Position numbers and translations under genes: made by a program
Notes under the pieces: model-generated
Seen by the model: the letters and a program-made list of their open reading frames with translations, nothing else
Told to the model about the DNA's origin: nothing
Databases searched by the model: none
In this document: positions 20,026 through 60,494 of the stretch, piece after piece
How positions within the stretch are numbered: the stretch's first letter is position 1
Layout: every line of letters begins with the position of its first letter
Source of the DNA: Escherichia coli
Lineage (GTDB): Bacteria > Pseudomonadota > Gammaproteobacteria > Enterobacterales > Enterobacteriaceae
Strand: one strand, 5' to 3'
DNA length: 64,000 bases
Assembly (NCBI RefSeq): GCF_044324875.1
Contig: NZ_CP172185.1

Positions 20026-20086
20026 GGTATCCGTTCTGCTGAAGTGTCATGGCGTTGATTTTACGGTGACTCTTCGACAGTGAAAA

Positions 20087-20108
20087 GAAAAAAGGCCGCA
20101 GAGCGGCC
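20087..20108. repeat. attL core, direct repeat gaaaaaaggccgcagagcggcc
   Basis: Identical 22-mer at 57761-57782; seen in sequence. Confidence 0.7.
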
Positions 20109-20200: not shown

Positions 20201-20218
20201 GGTCACTTTGTGGATCAT
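20201..20218. repeat. 18-bp repeat ggtcactttgtggatcat inside prophage left arm (possible integrase arm-type site)
   Basis: 17/18 match to 57705-57722 in same orientation; functional role is inference. Confidence 0.3.
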
Positions 20219-20631
20219 TCGTCCCCTTCTTTCTCTTTGTTCTGTTGAACGCTAATTGCGACACACGTAGCAATCAAATCTTTACATTTCTCCATATCTT
20301 CTGTCTTGCGCAACTTGATGCTTGCCACCGATTGTGGATTATCCGCTGTGGCACAATGCATTGTTATTTCAATGTCGTTTCGATGAAAGAGTCCCATAAT
20401 AGCTTTTGCAACCTCCGTCCCTTTTTCCGCGATATCAAAGATCAAAGCAAGTTTATACAAAATATCACCAGAAAAACACTCAACCCTGCTAAGACCAACA
20501 TCACATAATGAAAAATATTGCTCAACGTCCCCCTGGAGTTCGGGAGCACACACAATATCTATTTTTCCGTACTGGCCTGAATAAAAGTCACTATTAACTG
20601 TTTTTTTCACAACATCCTCCTTCTTCAGCAA
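20215..20631 (-). CDS. hypothetical acidic protein at prophage left end (C-terminal region paralogous to ORF 56096-56311)
   Basis: 138-aa ORF overlapping 3' end of int; FHRNDIEITMHC...IKLRKTEDMEKCKDLI resembles FRRNDIEIELHF...VKLRHARDVQACQCLI. Confidence 0.55.
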   Translation of the reverse strand: MLKKEDVVKKTVNSDFYSGQYGKIDIVCAPELQGDVEQYFSLCDVGLSRVECFSGDILYKLALIFDIAEKGTEVAKAIMGLFHRNDIEITMHCATADNPQSVASIKLRKTEDMEKCKDLIATCVAISVQQNKEKEGDE

Positions 20632-21595
20632 TTGGATTAAACCTCACCGCATCCTGCAAATAATCCGGTGCAAGATGGGCATAAATCATCGTTGTCTGAA
20701 TCTTTGCGTGCCCCAGAATTTTCTGGAGCGTCAGAATATTGCCGCCGTTCATCATGAAATGACTGGCGAAAGTGTGGCGCAGCGCGTGAACGGCCTGCCC
20801 GTCAGGAATGGAAGGGGCAACCGCTTTTATCGAATCGCGCACCAGTGAATAATCCAGCGCCGGAAATACCAGCTTTCCGCCCCGTTTTTTAATTTTGTCA
20901 AACAGGCTTTCAGAAATTGGAACAGTCCGGTTTTTACTGTTTTTGGTTCTGGAAAATGTGATCCGGGAATGCAGAACGCGGCGCTGTTCAAGTGCCACCA
21001 CCTCACCCCATCGCGCCCCGGTAGATAAAAGAATTTCAGTAGCTAGCCGTTCGTCGGGATGCTCTACCAGAACGTCAAGCAGCTGGAGGCACTCCTGCCT
21101 GTTCAGATACCCCATTTCGCGCTCGCTGACCTTCATCCCTTTCAGTCCGCTAACAGGGTTATCATTCTGGAAGTGACCGGATGAGATGAGTGCGGAAAAC
21201 ATCGCGCTAAGCGCACCAACCTCGCGGTTTATGGTACTTGGCTGAATCCCCTCCTCCGCTCTTGCCACGCGTAATTCCGTTAACGTGGTGGCGTTGACGT
21301 TGTTAACACGCGGATCCCCCATCGCTTCACACACGCGCTGTAATTTGAGGCGTGTGTTCCACCCCGATTTCATCAGTTGCCCGTGAAACTTCCACCATAA
21401 TTCGATAAGTTCGGACAACGAACGGCGATCGGTCGGCGCACTGTTCCATGCGTTATTTTGGTGTTGAGCTAAAACCCAGCGTTCGAACTGGATAGCCTCC
21501 GACTTTGTTTTGAACTTTTTACGAATGCGTTTACCTTTGCGCCCATCAGGACGCATATCAACCATGTAGCCACCAGGGATTGATTTTATGCTCAT
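20594..21595 (-). CDS. int: tyrosine-type site-specific integrase (P2 Int-like)
   Basis: Translation MSIKSIPGGYMVDMRPDGRKGKR...; C-terminal ...HALRHTFASHFMMNGGNILTLQKILGH...YAHL catalytic region; start chosen at ATG 21595 inside longer ORF. Confidence 0.9.
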   Translation of the reverse strand: MSIKSIPGGYMVDMRPDGRKGKRIRKKFKTKSEAIQFERWVLAQHQNNAWNSAPTDRRSLSELIELWWKFHGQLMKSGWNTRLKLQRVCEAMGDPRVNNVNATTLTELRVARAEEGIQPSTINREVGALSAMFSALISSGHFQNDNPVSGLKGMKVSEREMGYLNRQECLQLLDVLVEHPDERLATEILLSTGARWGEVVALEQRRVLHSRITFSRTKNSKNRTVPISESLFDKIKKRGGKLVFPALDYSLVRDSIKAVAPSIPDGQAVHALRHTFASHFMMNGGNILTLQKILGHAKIQTTMIYAHLAPDYLQDAVRFNPIAEEGGCCEKNS

Positions 21596-30373: not shown

Positions 30374-30748
30374 TTATTCCAGAATCAGCTGTTCAGGTGT
30401 GCAGCCGTACAGTCTGGCAAGGCGCTCAATATTTGCCCTGCGCGGGCGTTCCGTTCTTTCGAATTCGGACACGGTAGCCTGCCTGATACCCAGCGCATCC
30501 GCCACCTGCTTTTGCGTCATTCCGCGATAGATTCGCCACGCCGCCTGCATTGTGCAGCCACGCTCCGAGAGAATGTTAACCACCTCGTTGGGATACAGCG
30601 TATCAGGCGATGCACACGGTTCGTTCTGGACGTCCTCGTAGAGTTCGTCAAGGTCGCTGTCTCCTGCCAGTTTTTCAAACAACGCCACTGGCAGAATGAC
30701 GGACACCCTGTTACCCGCACCGTCAGTAATAAACTGAATCTGACTCAT
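30374..30748 (-). CDS. XRE-family HTH protein, putative antitoxin/regulator
   Basis: 124-aa ORF; C-terminal ...MTQKQVADALGIRQATVSEFERTERPRRANIERLARLYGCTPEQL typical XRE HTH; strong RBS CAGGAGGGG. Confidence 0.6.
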   Translation of the reverse strand: MSQIQFITDGAGNRVSVILPVALFEKLAGDSDLDELYEDVQNEPCASPDTLYPNEVVNILSERGCTMQAAWRIYRGMTQKQVADALGIRQATVSEFERTERPRRANIERLARLYGCTPEQLILE

Positions 30749-30794
30749 TTACCCCTCCTGCTAAACATCGGTTTATTTTTTAATTTGCTGCCGG

Positions 30795-30821
30795 TGATAA
30801 AAAACGGCGGGTCGCCCCGCC
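30795..30821 (-). terminator. hairpin ggcggg-gcga-cccgcc + T6 immediately after the RelE-like stop
   Basis: Seen in sequence (reverse complement of 30795-30821). Confidence 0.45.
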
Positions 30822-31094
30822 TTAGTATGTTGTCGAGGTTCTCCGCTGAATACGGAGGATCCTGATAACCACTATCTGCCCTCCCTCAATCGTGAACCTG
30901 ACACGGTAATGATTTACCCTGAGTCTGTACTCCCCGCCCGAGTCAGTGAGCTTTTTAATATCCAGATTCTGGAACTTCGGATAGCCATAAAGCGCGTTAA
31001 CTTTCTCGCGTAAGGATTTCTGATCCCTCGCTGGCAAAACCCGTAAATCTTTGATTGCCCGAGGGGTCCACATGATTTCAGTCGTCATAAACAC
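30822..31094 (-). CDS. RelE/ParE-superfamily toxin-like protein
   Basis: 90-aa ORF; ...KKLTDSGGEYRLRVNHYRVRFTIEGGQIVVIRI... matches the RelE/ParE pattern (KxL..G...YRLRVGDYRV.Y). Confidence 0.6.
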   Translation of the reverse strand: MFMTTEIMWTPRAIKDLRVLPARDQKSLREKVNALYGYPKFQNLDIKKLTDSGGEYRLRVNHYRVRFTIEGGQIVVIRILRIQRRTSTTY

Positions 31095-50477: not shown

Positions 50478-50805
50478 TAAGCACCTCCAAGCGTCGCAAA
50501 TGCAGGACCAAAGAATTCATCAGTAAACGTCTGGTAAAGTTCCATATCCTCAAGCGGCGGAACGGGCGTGTACTTGTAGCGGATACGCACGCGTCCCTGA
50601 CGAAGTTCCGTGGTGCTGTTATCCACCACGTCATACCAGCACTCCGCACCAACGAGACGTCCTGACGTAACCAGCGCATCCAGTTTTGCGCGAATTGCGC
50701 TTAACACGTCTTTCACATTAGCAGGGGTCAGCGGGGCATCAATCGTTTCAAACTGCGCTTCCGCAACAGAATCAGCCAGCACCTGATGCAAAATGGCATC
50801 TGAAT
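50477..50805 (-). pseudogene. tail sheath (FI) C-terminal fragment, separated from N-terminal part by an IS
   Basis: Frame ...AIDSDAILHQVLADSVAEAQF...RIRYKYTPVPPLEDMELYQTFTDEFFGPAFATLGGA ends where tube gene starts; 5' boundary approximate. Confidence 0.6.
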
Positions 50806-50988
50806 CGATCGCAGTTTGGCATTCGAATCGATCATGATTTGGCATCCATCTCCGATCACAGTTTGGCATCACAATCGATCACGATTTGGCATGCTTCCGA
50901 TCATTGATTGGCATCCTGCCAGTCACTCCGGGAATTAACTCTTTTCACCACAGTCTCCATTGCCGTGTTTAAACCAGTGGAGACGTCA

Positions 50989-52554
50989 ATGTCCAGAAAG
51001 AGAAAATCCAGGAGCACTATGGAAACCTGTTTTAAGATCCTTCAGCTCAAGTTCGACAAGAAGCTGACTAACCGTTGTATCGGACTGACGTTACACATCA
51101 GCGCCTCAACCGTTTTTGAGGTTCTTGCCCGCTTCAAAGCCTCTTCTCTGTCATGGCCATTACCTGCTGATATATCCCATGACACGCTGGAGAAACTCAT
51201 TTTTCCGCCCAAAGACACCTTTGCATCAGAGCTTGTAATGCCTGACATGTTGTACTTCGATACGGAAATGAGAAAACCAGGTGTGACGCGGCAACTGTTG
51301 TGGATGGAATACAAGGCACAGGCGGGTAACAAAGCGATGGGATACTCGCACTTCTGCCGTTGCTACCGGGAGTGGAAAAAAACGCGACGTCTCTCCATGC
51401 GCCAGGAGCATCGTGCCGGCGAAAAGCTTTTTATCGACTTCTGTGGTCCTACGGTTCCTGTTATTAATCCGGACACCGGTGAGATACGCCGCGTGGCAAT
51501 CTTCGTGGCCGTAATGGGGGCGTCCAACTATACCTACGTTGAAGCGTGCGAAGGTCAGGACATGATGTCATGGTTAAATGCCCACAGCCGTTGCCTGACC
51601 TTCCTGGGCGGCGTACCGAAGCTGCTCATCCCCGATAACCTCAGAAGCGCAGTGAAAAAGGCCGATCGATATGAGCCTGTCATCAACGACAGTTATCAGG
51701 CACTGGCTGAGCACTATGGCACGGTTATCATCCCGGCCCGACCACGCAAACCTAAAGATAAACCAAAAGCAGAAAACGGCGTCCTCATCGTTGAACGATG
51801 GCTTCTTGCCCGCATCCGTAATGAAACCTTCCACACGCTCAGGGCGCTGAATGCGCGCCTTAGGGAGTTACTGACAGACATGAATAACCGGCCAATGAAG
51901 GGGTACGGCAATCAAACCCGTGCAGAACGCTTCCGCATACTGGATGCGCCAGCACTCTCTCCGCTGCCTCTGGCACCTTATGAATACACGGAATACAAAG
52001 CTGTGAAGGTTGGCCCTGACTACCACGTTGAATATGCCCGTCACTGGTACTCCGTTCCACACGAACTGGTCGGTCAGCGTCTGTCACTGAAGGCGGGGCA
52101 GTCGGTGGTACAGCTCTGGCACAAGGGGCAGTGTGTGGCGCAACATCCGCGCAGCACACATGAATATAAACACACAACCAATCCGCTTCACATGCCAGAG
52201 CGCCACCGGCAGCACGGGACATGGACACCGGAACGCCTGATCGAGCAGGGAAAACGTACGGGCCCGTCCACAGGCCGGGTGGTTGAATCCATGCTGAAGG
52301 CAAAACCCCATCCGGAACTGGCTTATCGTGCAGTTCTGGGGCTGCTGGCACTTCAGAAAAAATACGGCCCGGAACGGCTGGAAAAGGCCTGTTACGTTGC
52401 CCTGCACTATAACGCCCCTGACAGACGCTTTATCGACAATCTGCTGCGTCACCATCGGGAGAACCTGGAGCTTCCATTATCCCGCCAGGGCGAACAACAT
52501 CCGGCATATGCTTCAGAGCATGAAAACCTGCGTGGTCCGGGCTACTACCACTGA
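50989..52554 (+). CDS. istA: IS21-family transposase IstA
   Basis: N-terminal HTH, DDE-type central region; start taken at MSRKRKSRS (ATG 50989). Confidence 0.85.
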   Translation: MSRKRKSRSTMETCFKILQLKFDKKLTNRCIGLTLHISASTVFEVLARFKASSLSWPLPADISHDTLEKLIFPPKDTFASELVMPDMLYFDTEMRKPGVTRQLLWMEYKAQAGNKAMGYSHFCRCYREWKKTRRLSMRQEHRAGEKLFIDFCGPTVPVINPDTGEIRRVAIFVAVMGASNYTYVEACEGQDMMSWLNAHSRCLTFLGGVPKLLIPDNLRSAVKKADRYEPVINDSYQALAEHYGTVIIPARPRKPKDKPKAENGVLIVERWLLARIRNETFHTLRALNARLRELLTDMNNRPMKGYGNQTRAERFRILDAPALSPLPLAPYEYTEYKAVKVGPDYHVEYARHWYSVPHELVGQRLSLKAGQSVVQLWHKGQCVAQHPRSTHEYKHTTNPLHMPERHRQHGTWTPERLIEQGKRTGPSTGRVVESMLKAKPHPELAYRAVLGLLALQKKYGPERLEKACYVALHYNAPDRRFIDNLLRHHRENLELPLSRQGEQHPAYASEHENLRGPGYYH

Positions 52555-52570
52555 CAGAAGGAACAACAGT

Positions 52571-53326
52571 ATGAGTGATAACCTGTTAAACAAACTGACC
52601 CAACTGAAACTCCCGGCGATGGCCGGGAGCCTGATACGGCAGCGGGAAACGCCTCAGACCTACGACGAACTGTCGTTCGAGGAAAGGCTGACGCTGCTGG
52701 TTGATGACGAGCTTCTGAGCAGGGAAAACAGCCGTGTGGCACGGTTGAGAAAAAATGCCGGCCTGAAATACCAGGCAACACCGGAAGGGCTGCGCTATCC
52801 GGCCTCAAGAGGTCTGCGGGCTGAACAGATGAGAGAACTGCTGAACGGCCACTACATAACCCACAGGAAAAACCTGCTGATAACCGGTCCGACAGGATGT
52901 GGCAAGAGCTGGATAGCCAATGCGCTGGGCGAACAGGCATGTCGACAGAAACACAGCGTCCGGTACTGTAGAACCGGGCGATTACTGGAACAACTGGCTC
53001 AGGGACGTGTTGATGGCAGCTGGCTGAAATATCTGAAACAGTTGCAAAAAATACAGGTTCTAATCCTGGACGATCTGGGGCTGGAACAGTTAAGTAACGC
53101 CCAGTGTAATGACCTTCTGGAGCTCATAGAGGATCGTTACGGACAAAGCAGCACGATAGTGGTAAGCCAGTTCCCGGTAGATAAATGGCATGGTCTGATG
53201 GAGAACCCAACAACAGCAGATGCCATCCTGGACAGACTGGTACATAACTCACACCGAGTGGTCCTTCAGGGAGAGTCACTGAGGAAAAATCCCCCGGTAG
53301 TGGAAAGCAGCGAAAAAACGCGTTAA
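52571..53326 (+). CDS. istB: IS21-family helper ATPase IstB
   Basis: Start MSDNLLNKLTQLKLP; Walker A GPTGCGKS, Walker B ILDDLG. Confidence 0.9.
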   Translation: MSDNLLNKLTQLKLPAMAGSLIRQRETPQTYDELSFEERLTLLVDDELLSRENSRVARLRKNAGLKYQATPEGLRYPASRGLRAEQMRELLNGHYITHRKNLLITGPTGCGKSWIANALGEQACRQKHSVRYCRTGRLLEQLAQGRVDGSWLKYLKQLQKIQVLILDDLGLEQLSNAQCNDLLELIEDRYGQSSTIVVSQFPVDKWHGLMENPTTADAILDRLVHNSHRVVLQGESLRKNPPVVESSEKTR

Positions 53327-53409
53327 AAAGCGGTAGAAAAAGTTAAGTTCCCGGTTGATCGAATGGATGCGAATCGCTGATCGGACTTCGATGCCAATCC
53401 GTGATCGAA

Positions 53410-54406
53410 TAGAGCGGAATACGCACACCTGAGCGGTTCGCGTGTACACCTCAAAGATATACGCCTTCGTTTCCGGCGTACGGTTGCCCCAGAAGCGGAA
53501 ACCGTTACGGCGAATGATGGTGGTGATTTCCTTGTTGTTGAGATTGTTGGCATCGCTGTCTTCGGACTGAAGGGACCAGAACACCGGGCTGGAAATACCC
53601 AGCACATTTCTTACCGGCACGTTGGACAGCGATTTATGCCAGCCCTGTTCGTGGTCAATACGTGCACGTAAACCGCAGGCGTACGCCGCAGCCGGGAAGA
53701 CCTCATTAGCGCCGGATTTCGGGTTATGGGCGATGAAGTCAGGCCAGAGCAGCATAAGTTCGCGCTCGTTAAATCTGGCGCGGTAGCTGATTGCATCAGC
53801 GGGCTTCTTGCAGTTGTGACAGCCCGCGTAGACAAATGCGCGAAGTTTTTCTGCAATTACACACAGGGATTTTGTGACAGCTTCAGTATCCAGTCCGGGC
53901 GCTGCGATGATGCGCGGACGGTAACCGATGGCATCATCCTGTTCAGCTATCAGAAGTGCATACATACCGGTATAATTACCGTCGCCATCCGTGCCACCAA
54001 TGACATACTGGTCCTGCGTTTTGTGTGGGTATACAGGATGTGCATCTTCAGACTCATCAATACCAAAAAATGCCCTGTCTTCAGGATCCAGATGACCGAA
54101 TGATGTAACTCCTGTATCCGGGGCGCCCTGAGAACTGGCATCAGGAACGCGCACCACAATCACCTTCGTGCTCACCTGGTCGGCGACAGCCTTAAGCGAT
54201 TTGTAAAGCGTCCCCTTTGTGCCGGCCTTACCCAGCACATCACTGACGCGGGTCAGCAGTGTGGGTTTGTTCAGCGGGAACAGAGTTTCATCCGCGTCAT
54301 CTGCCGTAGCCACAATACCAATAACACTGGAATCCACATCATTAATGGCGGTGGCAAGGCCGGTACTTTCCCTTACGCGCGCACCATGAAAGCGTGTTTC
54401 ACTCAT
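53410..54406 (-). pseudogene. tail sheath (FI) N-terminal fragment interrupted by IS
   Basis: Start MSETRFHGARV at ATG 54406; frame runs into IS right end where translation becomes IS-derived. Confidence 0.65.
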
Positions 54407-54566: not shown

Positions 54567-55658
54567 ATGACCGACCTGTTAATCAACGTTCCGTCACCGG
54601 ATATCGAAATCACCATCAACAACAACAGACTCCGTAACGTCACGGAGCGGCTCATGACGCTGTCACTGACCGACAACCGGGGCTTTGAGGCGGACCGCGT
54701 CACCCTGACCATTGACGACGCGGACGGGCAGCTTCAGCTGCCACAGCGCGGCGCACGCCTGAACGTGATGATTGGCTGGCGCGGGGAGGCGCTGGTTAAC
54801 AAGGGTGTCTACATCGTTGATGAAGTGACGTGGGAAGGCCCGCCGGACAAACTGACCATCACCGCCAGCAGCGCCGATTTTCGCGAAGAGTTCAACGTGA
54901 AGCGTGAAGTCTCCTGGCACGACGTGACGGTAAAACAGGTTGTGTCAGCCATCGCGCACCGCTACGGCCTGAAAGCACAGATAAGCGATATCCTCATGGA
55001 TATCGAAATTGACCACGCAGACCAGACCGAAGAGAGCGATATATCCTTCCTGACCCGCATGGCTGAAATGCTGGGTGCGATTGCCACCGTAAAAAACGGC
55101 AGCCTGTTATTCATTCTGCCGGGTGGCGGAACCGGGCCGGACGGAAAAGCCCTGCCTTCGTTCGCCATTACCCGCAGCAGCGGCGACAGTCACCGCTTTC
55201 GCATTGCTGACCGTGATGCGTATACGGGGGTCCGGGCGCACTGGCTCGATCTGAAGTTCGGGCAAAAGAAAAAAGTGAACGTGAAGCGACGCAGGGAAGC
55301 CGGGAAACAGAAACAGGAGAAGAGCAGCAGCCGGGAAGGTGATTACATGGAGGGCGCGGAAGGGAACGTCTACGTTCTGCGCAGGACTTACCAGAATGAA
55401 GAAACCGCACGACGTGCAGCAGCTGCAAAGTGGCAGGAACTACAGCGGGGCGCGGCATCATTCTCCATCACGCTGGCGCGCGGTCGTGCCGACCTGTACC
55501 CTGAAATGCACGGCAGGGTAACAGGTTTTAAAAGCGAGGTGGACAATCAGGACTGGATTATTGCCAGGGTGGAGCACAGCATAGATGAAAGCGGCTTCAC
55601 CACACAACTGGAGCTGGAAGCGAAAATCCCCGAATGGATAGCAGATTCAGGCGGATAA
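54567..55658 (+). CDS. late control/tail protein D
   Basis: 363-aa ORF directly upstream of ogr-like gene, as in P2. Confidence 0.85.
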   Translation: MTDLLINVPSPDIEITINNNRLRNVTERLMTLSLTDNRGFEADRVTLTIDDADGQLQLPQRGARLNVMIGWRGEALVNKGVYIVDEVTWEGPPDKLTITASSADFREEFNVKREVSWHDVTVKQVVSAIAHRYGLKAQISDILMDIEIDHADQTEESDISFLTRMAEMLGAIATVKNGSLLFILPGGGTGPDGKALPSFAITRSSGDSHRFRIADRDAYTGVRAHWLDLKFGQKKKVNVKRRREAGKQKQEKSSSREGDYMEGAEGNVYVLRRTYQNEETARRAAAAKWQELQRGAASFSITLARGRADLYPEMHGRVTGFKSEVDNQDWIIARVEHSIDESGFTTQLELEAKIPEWIADSGG

Positions 55659-55701
55659 AATTAAAATGAGCCATCTCCACTCAGCCAGATAAGGAGAAGC
55701 C

Positions 55702-55953
55702 ATGTTCCGTTGTCCCCTGTGCGGTGCATCCGCACGTATCCGCACCAGTCGCAATGAAAATGATTCAGGCACAGTTCGCCTGAAGTACTACCAGTGCAAT
55801 AACCTCGAATGCGGGATCGGCTTTACCACACTGGAGGGTTTTAACAAATTCACATCAAAACGCGCCCCGTCGCCGCAGGGTACAGAGCGGATACCGTGGG
55901 AAGATTTTCCGGGATCTCACAGGGGGAATGCTCAGATGAATCTTGATATTTAA
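55702..55953 (+). CDS. ogr: Ogr/Delta-family zinc-finger late transcription activator
   Basis: MFRCPLCG...YYQCNNLECG Cys4 arrangement; position after D. Confidence 0.8.
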   Translation: MFRCPLCGASARIRTSRNENDSGTVRLKYYQCNNLECGIGFTTLEGFNKFTSKRAPSPQGTERIPWEDFPGSHRGNAQMNLDI

Positions 55954-55965
55954 GAACAATAATCA

Positions 55966-56097
55966 GGTTGAGAGGACATCATAAGGCAAGTAGATTAACG
56001 GCAGATACTTTCCCGCAACCACGGGCAAGTATTTAATTATCCATGATGAAATATGACCTAAATTGTTTTTTGCCCGCCGGAAAGCGGGCATTTTTTT
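55966..56097 (+). repeat. repeat unit 1 (GGTTGAG...GTAGATTAAC...hairpin+T-run), candidate small RNA
   Basis: Shares 5' GGTTGAG, GTAGATTAAC core, TTATCCATGAT and terminal gcccgccNNNNNNgggc+T7 with units 2/3. Confidence 0.3.
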
Positions 56098-56311
56098 ATT
56101 CTTTTGTGGTTATGGGGTCATCAGGAACCACGTGCAGATTATATTTTTGTTTTTTTGGCGTTCCTCCGGCAGCAACGAGTTCATCAATAAGACACTGACA
56201 CGCCTGAACATCCCGGGCATGTCTTAGTTTCACCTTTATTGATTTAACCTTATCCTCACCGGAGGAGAAATGCAGTTCAATCTCAATATCGTTTCTTCGG
56301 AACAATCTCAT
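56096..56311 (-). CDS. hypothetical small protein, paralogous to C-terminal half of ORF 20215-20631
   Basis: 71-aa ORF with RBS AGGGGGG; similarity noted by eye. Confidence 0.5.
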   Translation of the reverse strand: MRLFRRNDIEIELHFSSGEDKVKSIKVKLRHARDVQACQCLIDELVAAGGTPKKQKYNLHVVPDDPITTKE

Positions 56312-56580
56312 ACGCCCCCCTGAATATATCAGAAATGCTAGTATCGAAAAATGAGAAAACAGTTAGACAGGAGAAACATATTAACACAAATCATTTATAC
56401 CTATAGATGAAATTATAATTTCATTCATGAATATGATAGATAACTATATTGTGAACAAAATGAAAAATGGCTAAATTAAAAATGGGCATGGAGGAATGCC
56501 TCGTAATCAGTAATACATGATCCATACTTCCTTGTTTTGCCCGCCGGAAAGCGGGCATTTTTTTGGCGGTTACCATCGCC

Positions 56581-56765
56581 TCACCTTCCTGGTTCACACA
56601 AAGCAACCCTGATTTTCCATGAAAACTTCAGGGTTGAGCCAAAAGCACAAAGACAGTAGATTAACCAAGGGTACCCGCCACCTGCCAACAGGAACGGTAT
56701 CCAGTACGTATTAATGACTGACAATTCACATTGCTGTTTTGCCCGCCAGAAGGTGGGCATTTTTT
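56581..56765 (+). repeat. repeat unit 2 (~203-bp period) ending in intrinsic terminator, candidate small RNA
   Basis: Near-identical to unit 3 with scattered substitutions; terminator stem 56740-56757 + T-run. Confidence 0.35.
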
Positions 56766-56783
56766 TGGCAGTTATCATGGACG

Positions 56784-56968
56784 CACCTTCATGACACATA
56801 TTAAGCAGACCTGATTTTTCCATGAAAAATTCATGGTTGAGACAAAAGCACAAAAACAGTAGATTAACCACGGGTGCCTGCCACCTGACAACAGGAAGGG
56901 GTGTCCATTATCCATGATATACAAACGAAAAGTCTTGTCTTTTGCCCGCCGTTGCGCGGGCTTTTTTT
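56784..56968 (+). repeat. repeat unit 3 ending in intrinsic terminator, candidate small RNA
   Basis: As unit 2; terminator stem 56943-56960 + T8 overlaps hicB stop. Confidence 0.35.
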
Positions 56969-57366
56969 TATCCAAGAACCCTGTCTGCAGCAACACGCGC
57001 CAGAAATCCAGAGCGGCTACCGTATTCAGGATGAGACTCAACGAACTGATCAATGCGACGAATAAGCAGAGATGGCAGGGTAACATTGATTTTTTCCGAT
57101 TTCCCCATCAGGCGGGACACATCCACCTCAACGAGCGCCCACACTGCATCACTGTATTCAGGATCTGATTGCCATTCATCAAGATTTGTAGCGACAGGGA
57201 TAGACTCACCAGATTCAACCAGTAATTCTACGTGTGCCTCAATGGCTTCACGGGCACTGTCTACCGCATCCTGAAAACTATCACCGCCAGAAAAACAGCC
57301 GGGCAGATCTGGGACGCGAACACCAAAAGATGAATCCCCCCGGTCAATAGCGATTGCATATAACAT
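56968..57366 (-). CDS. hicB: HicB-family antitoxin
   Basis: MLYAIAIDRGDSSFGVRVPDLPGCFSGGDSFQDAVDSAREAIEAH... typical HicB N-domain; C-terminal RHH-like tail. Confidence 0.8.
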   Translation of the reverse strand: MLYAIAIDRGDSSFGVRVPDLPGCFSGGDSFQDAVDSAREAIEAHVELLVESGESIPVATNLDEWQSDPEYSDAVWALVEVDVSRLMGKSEKINVTLPSLLIRRIDQFVESHPEYGSRSGFLARVAADRVLG

Positions 57367-57388
57367 TGAGACCTCCAGAAGGTGGGGC

Positions 57389-57568
57389 TTACAGCCCCGC
57401 CTGTTTCTTAATACTTTTTAAAGTTGGTAAAGGTATATCTTTTTGAGGGTGTTTTACCGTTACCAGCCCCTTCTTTGTCGGATGTTTGAATTGATGATGA
57501 CTCCCCTTAACCCTAACAAGATACCATCCATCCGCCTCTATCATTGCTATTGCACTTTTGCTATCCAT
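57389..57568 (-). CDS. hicA: HicA-family toxin (59 aa; absent from ORF track)
   Basis: Manual translation of minus strand: MDSKSAIAMIEADGWYLVRVKGSHHQFKHPTKKGLVTVKHPQKDIPLPTLKSIKKQAGL; 20 bp upstream of hicB. Confidence 0.75.
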   Translation of the reverse strand: MDSKSAIAMIEADGWYLVRVKGSHHQFKHPTKKGLVTVKHPQKDIPLPTLKSIKKQAGL

Positions 57569-57704
57569 CCCCCCGTACTCCGTCTTTCGTTGTTGGAGTT
57601 ATTATAACCCCAACAACTAGTCAAAGCAAGGGTTCGGAGTTATTAGAGTTATAGAATAATTGACTGCCTCCCCAAAACTGCGGCAAGAAAAAACCACTGA
57701 CCAC

Positions 57705-57722
57705 GGTCAATTTGTGGATCAT
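57705..57722. repeat. 18-bp repeat ggtcaatttgtggatcat inside prophage right arm
   Basis: 17/18 match to 20201-20218. Confidence 0.3.
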
Positions 57723-57760
57723 GAATTAATTTTTATTTATAAATCAATGCATTATACAAA

Positions 57761-57782
57761 GAAAAAAGGCCGCAGAGCGGCC
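57761..57782. repeat. attR core gaaaaaaggccgcagagcggcc (part of ihfA terminator hairpin)
   Basis: Identical to 20087-20108; followed by T-run, i.e. intact terminator after ihfA. Confidence 0.7.
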
Positions 57783-57799
57783 TTTTTAGTTAGATCAGA

Positions 57800-58099
57800 T
57801 TACTCGTCTTTGGGCGAAGCGTTTTCGACCCGGCTTTTTAACTTCTGCCCGGGTCTGAAGGTCACCACGCGCCGTGCTGTAATGGGAATATCCTCGCCCG
57901 TTTTCGGGTTACGTCCCGGGCGTTGATTCTTATCACGCAGATCGAAGTTACCAAAACCAGAGAGTTTCACCTGTTCGCCGTTTTCCAGAGCGCGACGGAT
58001 CTCTTCGAAAAACAGTTCAACCAGTTCTTTGGCATCCCGCTTGCTAAGCCCAAGCTTATCAAACAGATATTCTGACATTTCAGCTTTTGTAAGCGCCAT
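57800..58099 (-). CDS. ihfA: integration host factor alpha subunit
   Basis: 99-aa [57 protein letters not shown]... Confidence 0.95.
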
Positions 58100-58103
58100 A
58101 GGT

Positions 58104-60494
<2,391 letters not shown>

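Follow-up and report, generated by a model that had tools for sequence, protein, structure and literature searches.

The window, i.e. the whole 64,000-nt stretch of Escherichia coli DNA that was analysed, contains a P2-like prophage whose right end carries two closely spaced genes on the minus strand. The first one, hicA (57389..57568), was recognized from the list of open reading frames and from family matches. It encodes a toxin of 59 aa. [quoted passage not shown] In this bicistron hicA comes first and the two genes are separated by 22 nt (57367-57388); the initial annotation had given a gap of 20 bp, a trivial discrepancy. The span that it had assigned to the module, 56968-57568, has the hicB stop and the hicA start as its exact limits. 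It had also remarked that hicA is missed by a 60-aa ORF track, as is indeed the case for a product of 59 aa.

The 59-aa minus-strand protein had been described as HicA-like, with a KGSHH motif. A profile search of its translation against HicA models bore this out, with a match to Pfam HicA_toxin (PF07927) at E = 8.4e-22 that covers the whole model (positions 3-58 of 58). The protein also matches the PHROG 353 family, annotated as “toxin” (E = 1.2e-22). HicB matches Pfam HicB_lk_antitox (PF15919) at E = 1e-45 over model positions 1-123 of 123, and PHROGs places the two proteins under “moron” toxin and HicB-like families. Identical proteins are present in RefSeq as a HicA family toxin (WP_029490553.1) and a HicB family antitoxin (WP_029490554.1). 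The NCBIfam scan of HicA and HicB gave no model matching either protein and the PADLOC scan of the same two proteins gave no defence-model match. The family assignment is therefore drawn from Pfam, PHROGs and the PDB.

Four complete E. coli genomes share a 790-bp segment containing hicAB with 100% identity, and an identical HicB is found in 2281 indexed blocks of public assemblies. A sequencing error or a hidden frameshift, a concern raised at the outset, is thus excluded. Judged from its sequence, the pair is very probably (about 90%) a canonical two-gene type II HicAB toxin-antitoxin operon, carried as accessory cargo of the prophage. [quoted passage not shown] It is an ordinary, already annotated member of a well-studied family.

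Structure-based comparisons point to the same family. HicA aligns over residues 1-59 with B. pseudomallei HicA (PDB 4C26 and 6G26_E; E about 1e-20). As read from the sequence, the KGSHH motif corresponds to HicA residues 21-25 and includes Gly22 and His24, two residues needed for the toxicity of BpsHicA (PMC11594946). Position 24 is a histidine in the query and an alanine in the 4C26 chain. HicB aligns with PDB 6G1N over residues 3-128 (E = 8.4e-31) and with Y. pestis HicB3 (PDB 4P78) over residues 1-131, as far as the C terminus (E = 1.7e-16). By sequence, the closest solved structures are the HicAB proteins of Burkholderia pseudomallei. The alignment to 6G1N and 4P78 reveals a conserved C-terminal stretch, KINVTLP...IDxFV...RSGFLA. 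Together with the Pfam match, these alignments, which reach the C terminus, confirm the N-domain and RHH-like tail initially proposed for HicB.

HicB was modelled with AlphaFold2 from 20 homologues (mean pLDDT 87). In the model, the N-domain is arranged as beta-beta-beta-alpha-beta and precedes two helices at the C terminus (99-111 and 118-131). The ribbon strand of the RHH tail is not called in this monomer model. A Foldseek search with the model gave 6G26, 6G1N and 4P7D as top matches, and the N-domain superimposes on 6G1C with an rmsd of 1.3-1.5 A (TMt 0.87-0.90). The predicted fold of the N-domain is a partial RNase H-like fold.

The module shares several features with the B. pseudomallei HicAB system (4C26, 6G1N, 6G26). 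These are the hicA-hicB order, a full-length alignment of HicA that includes Gly22 and His24, a full-length alignment of HicB including the RHH tail (E = 8e-31; 45% identity in the structural alignment) and a palindromic operator, putative in the prophage module, over the -10 box. The two systems differ in host, in carrier and in operator sequence; the module described here resides in the ogr-attP slot of an E. coli P2-like prophage and is known from sequence. The Burkholderia module is listed as prophage/IS-associated in Table 2 of the HicAB review. Y. pestis HicA3/HicB3 (4P78, 4P7D) likewise contains a HicB of the RHH type, and the alignment covers residues 1-131 (E = 1.7e-16). This system uses two operator sites, the main one overlapping the -10 box, a layout that parallels that of the prophage hicAB. 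However, it is only about 30% identical and is encoded at a chromosomal locus. E. coli K-12 HicAB (6HPB) is of the same family and shares the hicA-hicB order, but its structural match is weak (rank 17, 22% identity). No DNA similarity to it was found, and the distant search matched only nine E. coli genomes. We take K-12 hicAB to be located at a chromosomal locus other than that of the prophage hicAB.

The region upstream of hicA contains the elements expected to control the operon. A putative hicAB promoter was read from the sequence at 57601..57629 (minus strand). It is composed of a -35 box TTGCTT (57629-57624), a 17-nt spacer and a -10 box TATAAT (57606-57601), and was placed by eye and by comparison with homologous cassettes, where TTGACC-16/17-TATAAT or TACTAT is found at the same place. 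The consensus promoter scan did not call it because its -35 hexamer is weak, with only 3 of 6 positions matching the consensus. A 14+1+14 palindrome, GTTGTTGGGGTTAT-A-ATAACTCCAACAAC, is located at 57589..57617 on the minus strand and overlaps the -10 box. The two arms of this inverted repeat are 93% complementary. Its core, TTGGGGTTAT-A-ATAACCCCAA, is found at the same position over the -10 box in the cassettes of the Citrobacter phage phiNP and of lambdoid Stx prophages. We consider this palindrome as a putative HicB operator. Reference HicBs of the RHH type, BpsHicB and YpHicB3, are tetramers that bind a palindrome overlapping the -10 box (PMC11594946).

Two direct half-sites, ATAACTC-TA-ATAACTCC, are located further upstream (57636..57653, minus strand), where both a direct and an inverted repeat are seen. 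They are proposed to form an auxiliary operator. A direct half-site copy related to the palindrome lies at 57639-57652. The half-sites are kept as ATAACyCC-AATAACyCC in the phiNP and Stx-phage cassettes, where the order upstream of hicA is two ATAACyCC half-sites, the -35 box and the palindrome over the -10 box. A Shine-Dalgarno sequence, GGAG, precedes hicA at 57581-57578, and that of hicB, GGAGG, is located at 57376-57372. Directly upstream of the latter, the stem-loop scan identified a GC-rich hairpin (57380..57402, minus strand) that holds the hicA stop codon in its loop. This hairpin, GGGGCT-nTAA-GCCCC, is retained in three diverged cassettes. It may serve translational coupling or control of the toxin/antitoxin ratio.

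The boundaries of the prophage were defined from a perfect 25-nt direct repeat. One copy, the attL core, is located at 20084..20108. The other, the attR core AAAGAAAAAAGGCCGCAGAGCGGCC, is located at 57758..57782 and corresponds to the ihfA terminator; a minus-strand terminator was called over it at 57787-57763. Homology to K-12 and to thousands of other genomes stops exactly at 20108 and restarts exactly at 57758. The duplicated core and these coinciding breaks agree with the initial placement of hicAB at the attR-proximal end of the prophage. The P2-like (Peduoviridae-type) element itself extends from 20109 to 57757, between btuC and ihfA. The host is E. coli; btuD-btuE-btuC flank the element on its left side and ihfA-pheT-pheS on its right side. 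Gene annotations were taken from a 98-99.9% identical RefSeq relative, and include an integrase, a repressor region, a replication gene, portal, terminase, capsid and tail genes, gpD and ogr. Sequenced isolates are only distant relatives, and the best of them, P88 and Xuanwuvirus, show about 77% identity over about 27% of the query. The att-to-att distance is 37,674 bp, including a 2,639-bp IS21-family element that interrupts the tail sheath gene. Because of this insertion, the copy of the prophage in the window is probably defective.

hicAB is the final gene pair before attR, with 190 bp between the start codon of hicA and the attR core. The cassette is self-contained and measures about 690 bp (57653 to 56968). 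It is separated from the core by a 104-bp attR arm, the phage attP arm (57654..57757). Within this arm, an 18-nt motif (57705-57722) recurs as a direct repeat, 94% identical, at 20201-20218, 93 bp inside attL. Comparison of the arms shows a variant form of the motif in a related hok-type prophage at the same site. From its sequence and position, the motif is a putative Int arm-type site to which Int could bind.

Comparison with related prophages shows that the content of the interval between ogr and attR varies. At copA, another prophage matches the present one at 98.1% identity from its sheath gene through ogr as far as base 56969. This base falls at the hicB stop codon; the similarity ends immediately beyond it, and the copA prophage has an unrelated ORF of 73 aa instead. 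In serS-site prophages, the right end is shared with the hicAB prophage and is followed by Hok/Gef. About 157 complete genomes contain an ihfA-site prophage with an integrase region about 87% identical, and Hok/Gef was found between ogr and attR in both of the ihfA-site prophages examined. The module is thus missing from close relatives of the prophage, one of which has another small gene and others Hok/Gef. Like hicAB, the Hok/Gef of the ihfA site is of TA type and occupies the same ogr-attR slot, in prophages with a similar integrase region (about 87% nucleotide identity). It differs in being a type I system with a membrane toxin, unrelated to hicAB in sequence and in mechanism. Hok is classically controlled by the antisense RNA Sok, and Hok/Gef is classically a post-segregational killer.

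Related hicAB cassettes are also found in other phage backbones. In lambdoid Stx prophages their place is between Q and stxAB; phiNP and a metagenomic P2-like contig have them behind the tail-fibre genes. The phiNP and Stx cassettes resemble the present one in their proteins (97% identity for HicA, 74-75% for HicB), in operator layout and in the stop-codon hairpin. They differ in accessory position and in phage backbone. In Salmonella, a related hicAB is located at a prophage end next to ppiD, with a hok gene directly beside it. The module itself was not found in sequenced phage isolates, the best phage match being phiNP at 75%. These data show that hicAB is discrete, swappable accessory (moron) cargo in the ogr-attP slot of a P2-like prophage.

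On another reading of the same region, hicAB would not be phage cargo but an independent islet of the chromosome, or what is left of an older element, lodged between the prophage and ihfA. The abrupt loss of similarity with other P2-like prophages at the hicB stop codon (56969) could be understood in this way, as could the debris-like aspect of the ogr-hicB region, which contains a truncated copy of an int-adjacent ORF and repeated units. The rarity of the segment is also in line with an islet, hicAB being present at the ihfA site in only 4 of 5426 complete genomes. However, only two 25-nt cores are found. They flank the whole 37.7-kb element with hicAB inside, and no third core is located between ogr and hicB. 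K-12 homology restarts only at 57758, and the 104 bp between cassette and core look like a working attP arm, with the 18-nt site repeated on the int side. Moreover, the arrangement ihfA-hicA-hicB-(71 aa)-ogr-gpD, and hence the prophage, is present in 10 of 10 examined contexts of an identical HicB, and Hok occupies the equivalent position inside related same-site prophages. An independent islet is therefore very unlikely and this reading was rejected, given that no third att core exists and that the prophage is present in all contexts.

The diverged cassettes also inform on the selection acting on the cargo. Compared with phiNP and Stx, HicA differs by 2 of 59 aa, whereas synonymous sites are saturated (pS 0.87-0.90). 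For HicB, pN is 0.13-0.15 versus a pS of 0.72-0.74. The corresponding dN/dS estimates are 0.04-0.07, with dS near saturation. These sequence comparisons point to purifying selection on both genes, far stronger on the toxin. They bear on the idea that hicA and hicB are decaying, non-functional remnants, as the probably defective state of the prophage in the window and the weak -35 box might suggest. Against this idea, both frames are intact and retain the key residues. Across cassettes HicA keeps 97% identity despite saturated synonymous sites, the HicB dN/dS is as low as given above, and the operator and the intergenic hairpin are conserved. Decay is extremely unlikely.

An operating model for the two proteins can be proposed by analogy. 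If it works like its homologues in B. pseudomallei and Y. pestis, HicA would be a small, ribosome-independent RNase with a dsRBD fold whose toxicity depends on Gly22 and His24. HicB would mask the active site of HicA with its N-terminal domain and, through dimerised RHH tails bound to the palindrome over the -10 box, would repress the operon. If HicB were degraded or not replenished, free HicA could cleave RNA and growth would stop.

The prophage carries a second TA-type pair. A RelE-like toxin is encoded at 30822..31094 (PHROG match, E = 1.2e-14; RefSeq names the homologue RelE family toxin). It is paired with an HTH protein encoded at 30374..30748, and the pair (30374..31094) is located between the replication gene and the portal gene. 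The initial view that the prophage holds two TA-type modules in accessory positions therefore stands. P2-like phages possess a cos-adjacent hotspot that holds defence systems, as described by Rousset et al. (PMC9122126), and the RelE-like pair occupies this hotspot.

As for the biological role of hicAB, we infer that the module most likely acts as a selfish addiction or moron cassette, making it costly to lose the element that carries it. The initial annotation had glossed the module as linked to prophage stabilisation or abortive infection, a gloss that is unsupported. We rank addiction or stabilisation slightly above abortive infection, and both well above decay. Stabilisation of the prophage as the selected function, with long-lived HicA arresting cells that lose the element after excision, is possible and is put forward tentatively. 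It is consistent with hicAB being the final gene pair before attR, with Hok/Gef lying in the same slot in relatives and with hicAB and hok standing together at the Salmonella prophage end. It is also consistent with the state of the prophage, which is probably defective by the IS21 insertion in its sheath gene and yet has a hicAB identical to the copies of four complete genomes. However, spontaneous loss of P2-type prophages is already rare, so that the benefit would be small. In addition, the prophage HicAB2 of Pseudomonas putida, a functional TA system, affected neither prophage stability nor phage resistance, and deletion of hicAB2 left prophage excision and loss unchanged (PMC12894663).

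As the main alternative, the selected function may be defence of the lysogen against other phages by abortive infection. Infection would deplete HicB, and the freed HicA would degrade RNA. We consider this reading rather unlikely. The alternative occupant of the slot, Hok/Gef, is the classical post-segregational killer, and HicA and HicB have no match in PADLOC. Nevertheless, the slot of hicAB is an accessory one, the same P2-like prophage has the RelE-like pair in a defence-holding hotspot, and the cassette recurs in several unrelated phage backbones. Gerdes (2024) infers an anti-phage role of HicA from genetic contexts (PMC10865869). On the other hand, according to the HicAB review, experimental validation of a role in defence is still lacking, and no experimental phage defence by HicAB is reported in the literature. 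A selfish addiction cassette is still the role that we favour.

On its own, hicAB is of little significance, the proteins being already named in RefSeq and prophage HicAB modules being listed in reviews. The analysis is useful in giving the exact boundaries of the prophage and the identity of the att core with the ihfA terminator. It also delineates a discrete cassette of about 690 bp with a conserved operator, and shows that relatives have a Hok/Gef toxin gene in the same ogr-attR slot. The latter gives a small, testable lead on where P2-like phages keep addiction-type cargo. The occupants observed in the ogr-attP slot are hicAB here, Hok/Gef at the ihfA and serS sites, and hicAB with hok at the Salmonella prophage end. 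For the present P2-like lineage, the only mildly new point is that this interval acts as a slot for modules of the TA type. One may ask whether, in P2-like phages, the short stretch from ogr to the attP core is a third accessory slot, preferring TA-type modules and separate from the cos-adjacent hotspot. We regard this as unlikely. If true, an addiction module and a HicB-bound operator lying within about 140-170 bp of the core might couple TA state to excision or loss of the element.

Four tandem units are located between ogr and hicB, at 55968-56969. Each combines a body of about 95 nt with a promoter-like sequence (TTGAGA-N17-TAGATT) and an intrinsic terminator. In our own reading of the predicted folds, they would fold like Hfq-type sRNAs. 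The Rfam search of 55600-58200 returned nothing credible for these units; its single match above threshold was STnc540, which lies over the 3' end of ihfA. In the covariation check, the 5' stem of the units displays only one-sided changes. Two minus-strand ORFs of 96 aa (56581..56871) and 103 aa (56775..57086) overlap the tandem units and hicB, and were considered as small hydrophobic type I toxins. They were rejected because codon changes between units u3 and u4 are 2 synonymous versus 7 non-synonymous, and because a 1-nt indel shifts the frame, which is also broken in other copies. Finally, the 71-aa ORF that follows ogr shows homology to the 138-aa ORF next to int, of which it represents a C-terminal fragment.

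Relatives of the hicAB pair that closes the prophage at its attR end were found in other prophages, at different positions. In lambdoid Stx prophages (L021, L023 and L024), the pair is placed between the Q antiterminator gene and stxAB, the latter identified with RIP and SLT_beta domains. HicA and HicB of the lambdoid prophages are 97% and 75% identical, respectively, to the window proteins. In related prophages (L019, L020 and L022), hicAB adjoins a ParE-like/HTH pair. In Salmonella enterica (L026-L028), a prophage has integrated downstream of ppiD, and hicAB forms its outermost gene pair. This pair is co-directional with ppiD and directly adjoins a Hok/Gef gene, and its HicB is 73% identical. 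Across cassettes, the toxin has diverged far less than the antitoxin, with 97% amino-acid identity for HicA (57389-57568) as compared to 74-75% for HicB (56968-57366). Synonymous sites are saturated in both genes alike.

The region from ogr to the hicB stop codon (55968-56969, plus strand) contains four tandem units. Each unit is composed of a promoter-like sequence, TTGAGA-N17-TAGATT, a body of ca 95 nucleotides and an intrinsic terminator. The promoter-like copy near 56449 is degenerate. The terminators are located at 56071-56090, 56538-56557, 56740-56759 and 56944-56961 on the plus strand, and the T-run of the fourth and the hicB stop codon overlap. In the predicted fold of the RNAs, a 5' stem-loop is followed by an A/U-rich linker and the terminator, an organization that, in our reading, resembles that of Hfq-type sRNAs. 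A search of region 55600-58200 against Rfam identified no family matching the units. Only 30 of the 5426 complete E. coli genomes contain the units, where a single locus can have up to 7 copies; among the loci examined, they always accompany this type of prophage.

A 71-aa ORF (56096-56311, minus strand) is located downstream of ogr. It matches phrog_14142, and the match is confined to the C-terminal half of the family (positions 72-127 of 128). A full-length member of the same family (E=2.9e-52), the 138-aa ORF at 20215-20631 (minus strand), is located beside int, between this gene and attL. This relationship suggests that a relic of a previous integration module has persisted after ogr as the 71-aa ORF. 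The 138-aa ORF occupies a second variable spot of the prophage, between the attL arm and int (20222-20633). At this spot, the prophage of strain F374 carries instead a 1.1-kb segment with two other hypothetical genes; the two prophages are otherwise 98-99.9% identical.

The slot between ogr and attR houses Hok/Gef in two other P2-like prophages, those of strains 96_1414B (L006) and EC556 (L025), which share the ihfA terminator insertion site with the window prophage. In L006, an hxsABCD (His-Xaa-Ser radical SAM) cluster is found immediately upstream of ogr. In the window prophage, a gene pair between the replication and portal genes (30374-31094, minus strand) occupies the cos-adjacent hotspot known from P2-like phages. 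The upstream gene encodes a RelE-like toxin of 90 residues that matches PHROG 1213 (E=1.2e-14) and scores under the cut-off of model TIGR02385. A 124-aa HTH protein is encoded downstream.

The P2-like tail sheath gene is split by an IS21-family element (50787-53425) with the genes istA (50908-52554; NF033546, E=1e-84) and istB (52328-53326; NF038214, E=2e-76). The element also has multiple terminal repeats, and its target is duplicated over 7 bp. The sheath gene is uninterrupted in the F374 relative (427 aa). Therefore, the window prophage is probably defective.

Finally, an Rfam match to STnc540 (57703-57858, minus strand; 43.1 bits for a gathering score of 38) spans the 3' end of ihfA, the ihfA terminator, which corresponds to the att core, and 55 nucleotides of the prophage arm. 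The ihfA terminator is restored upon integration, at attL as well as at attR.
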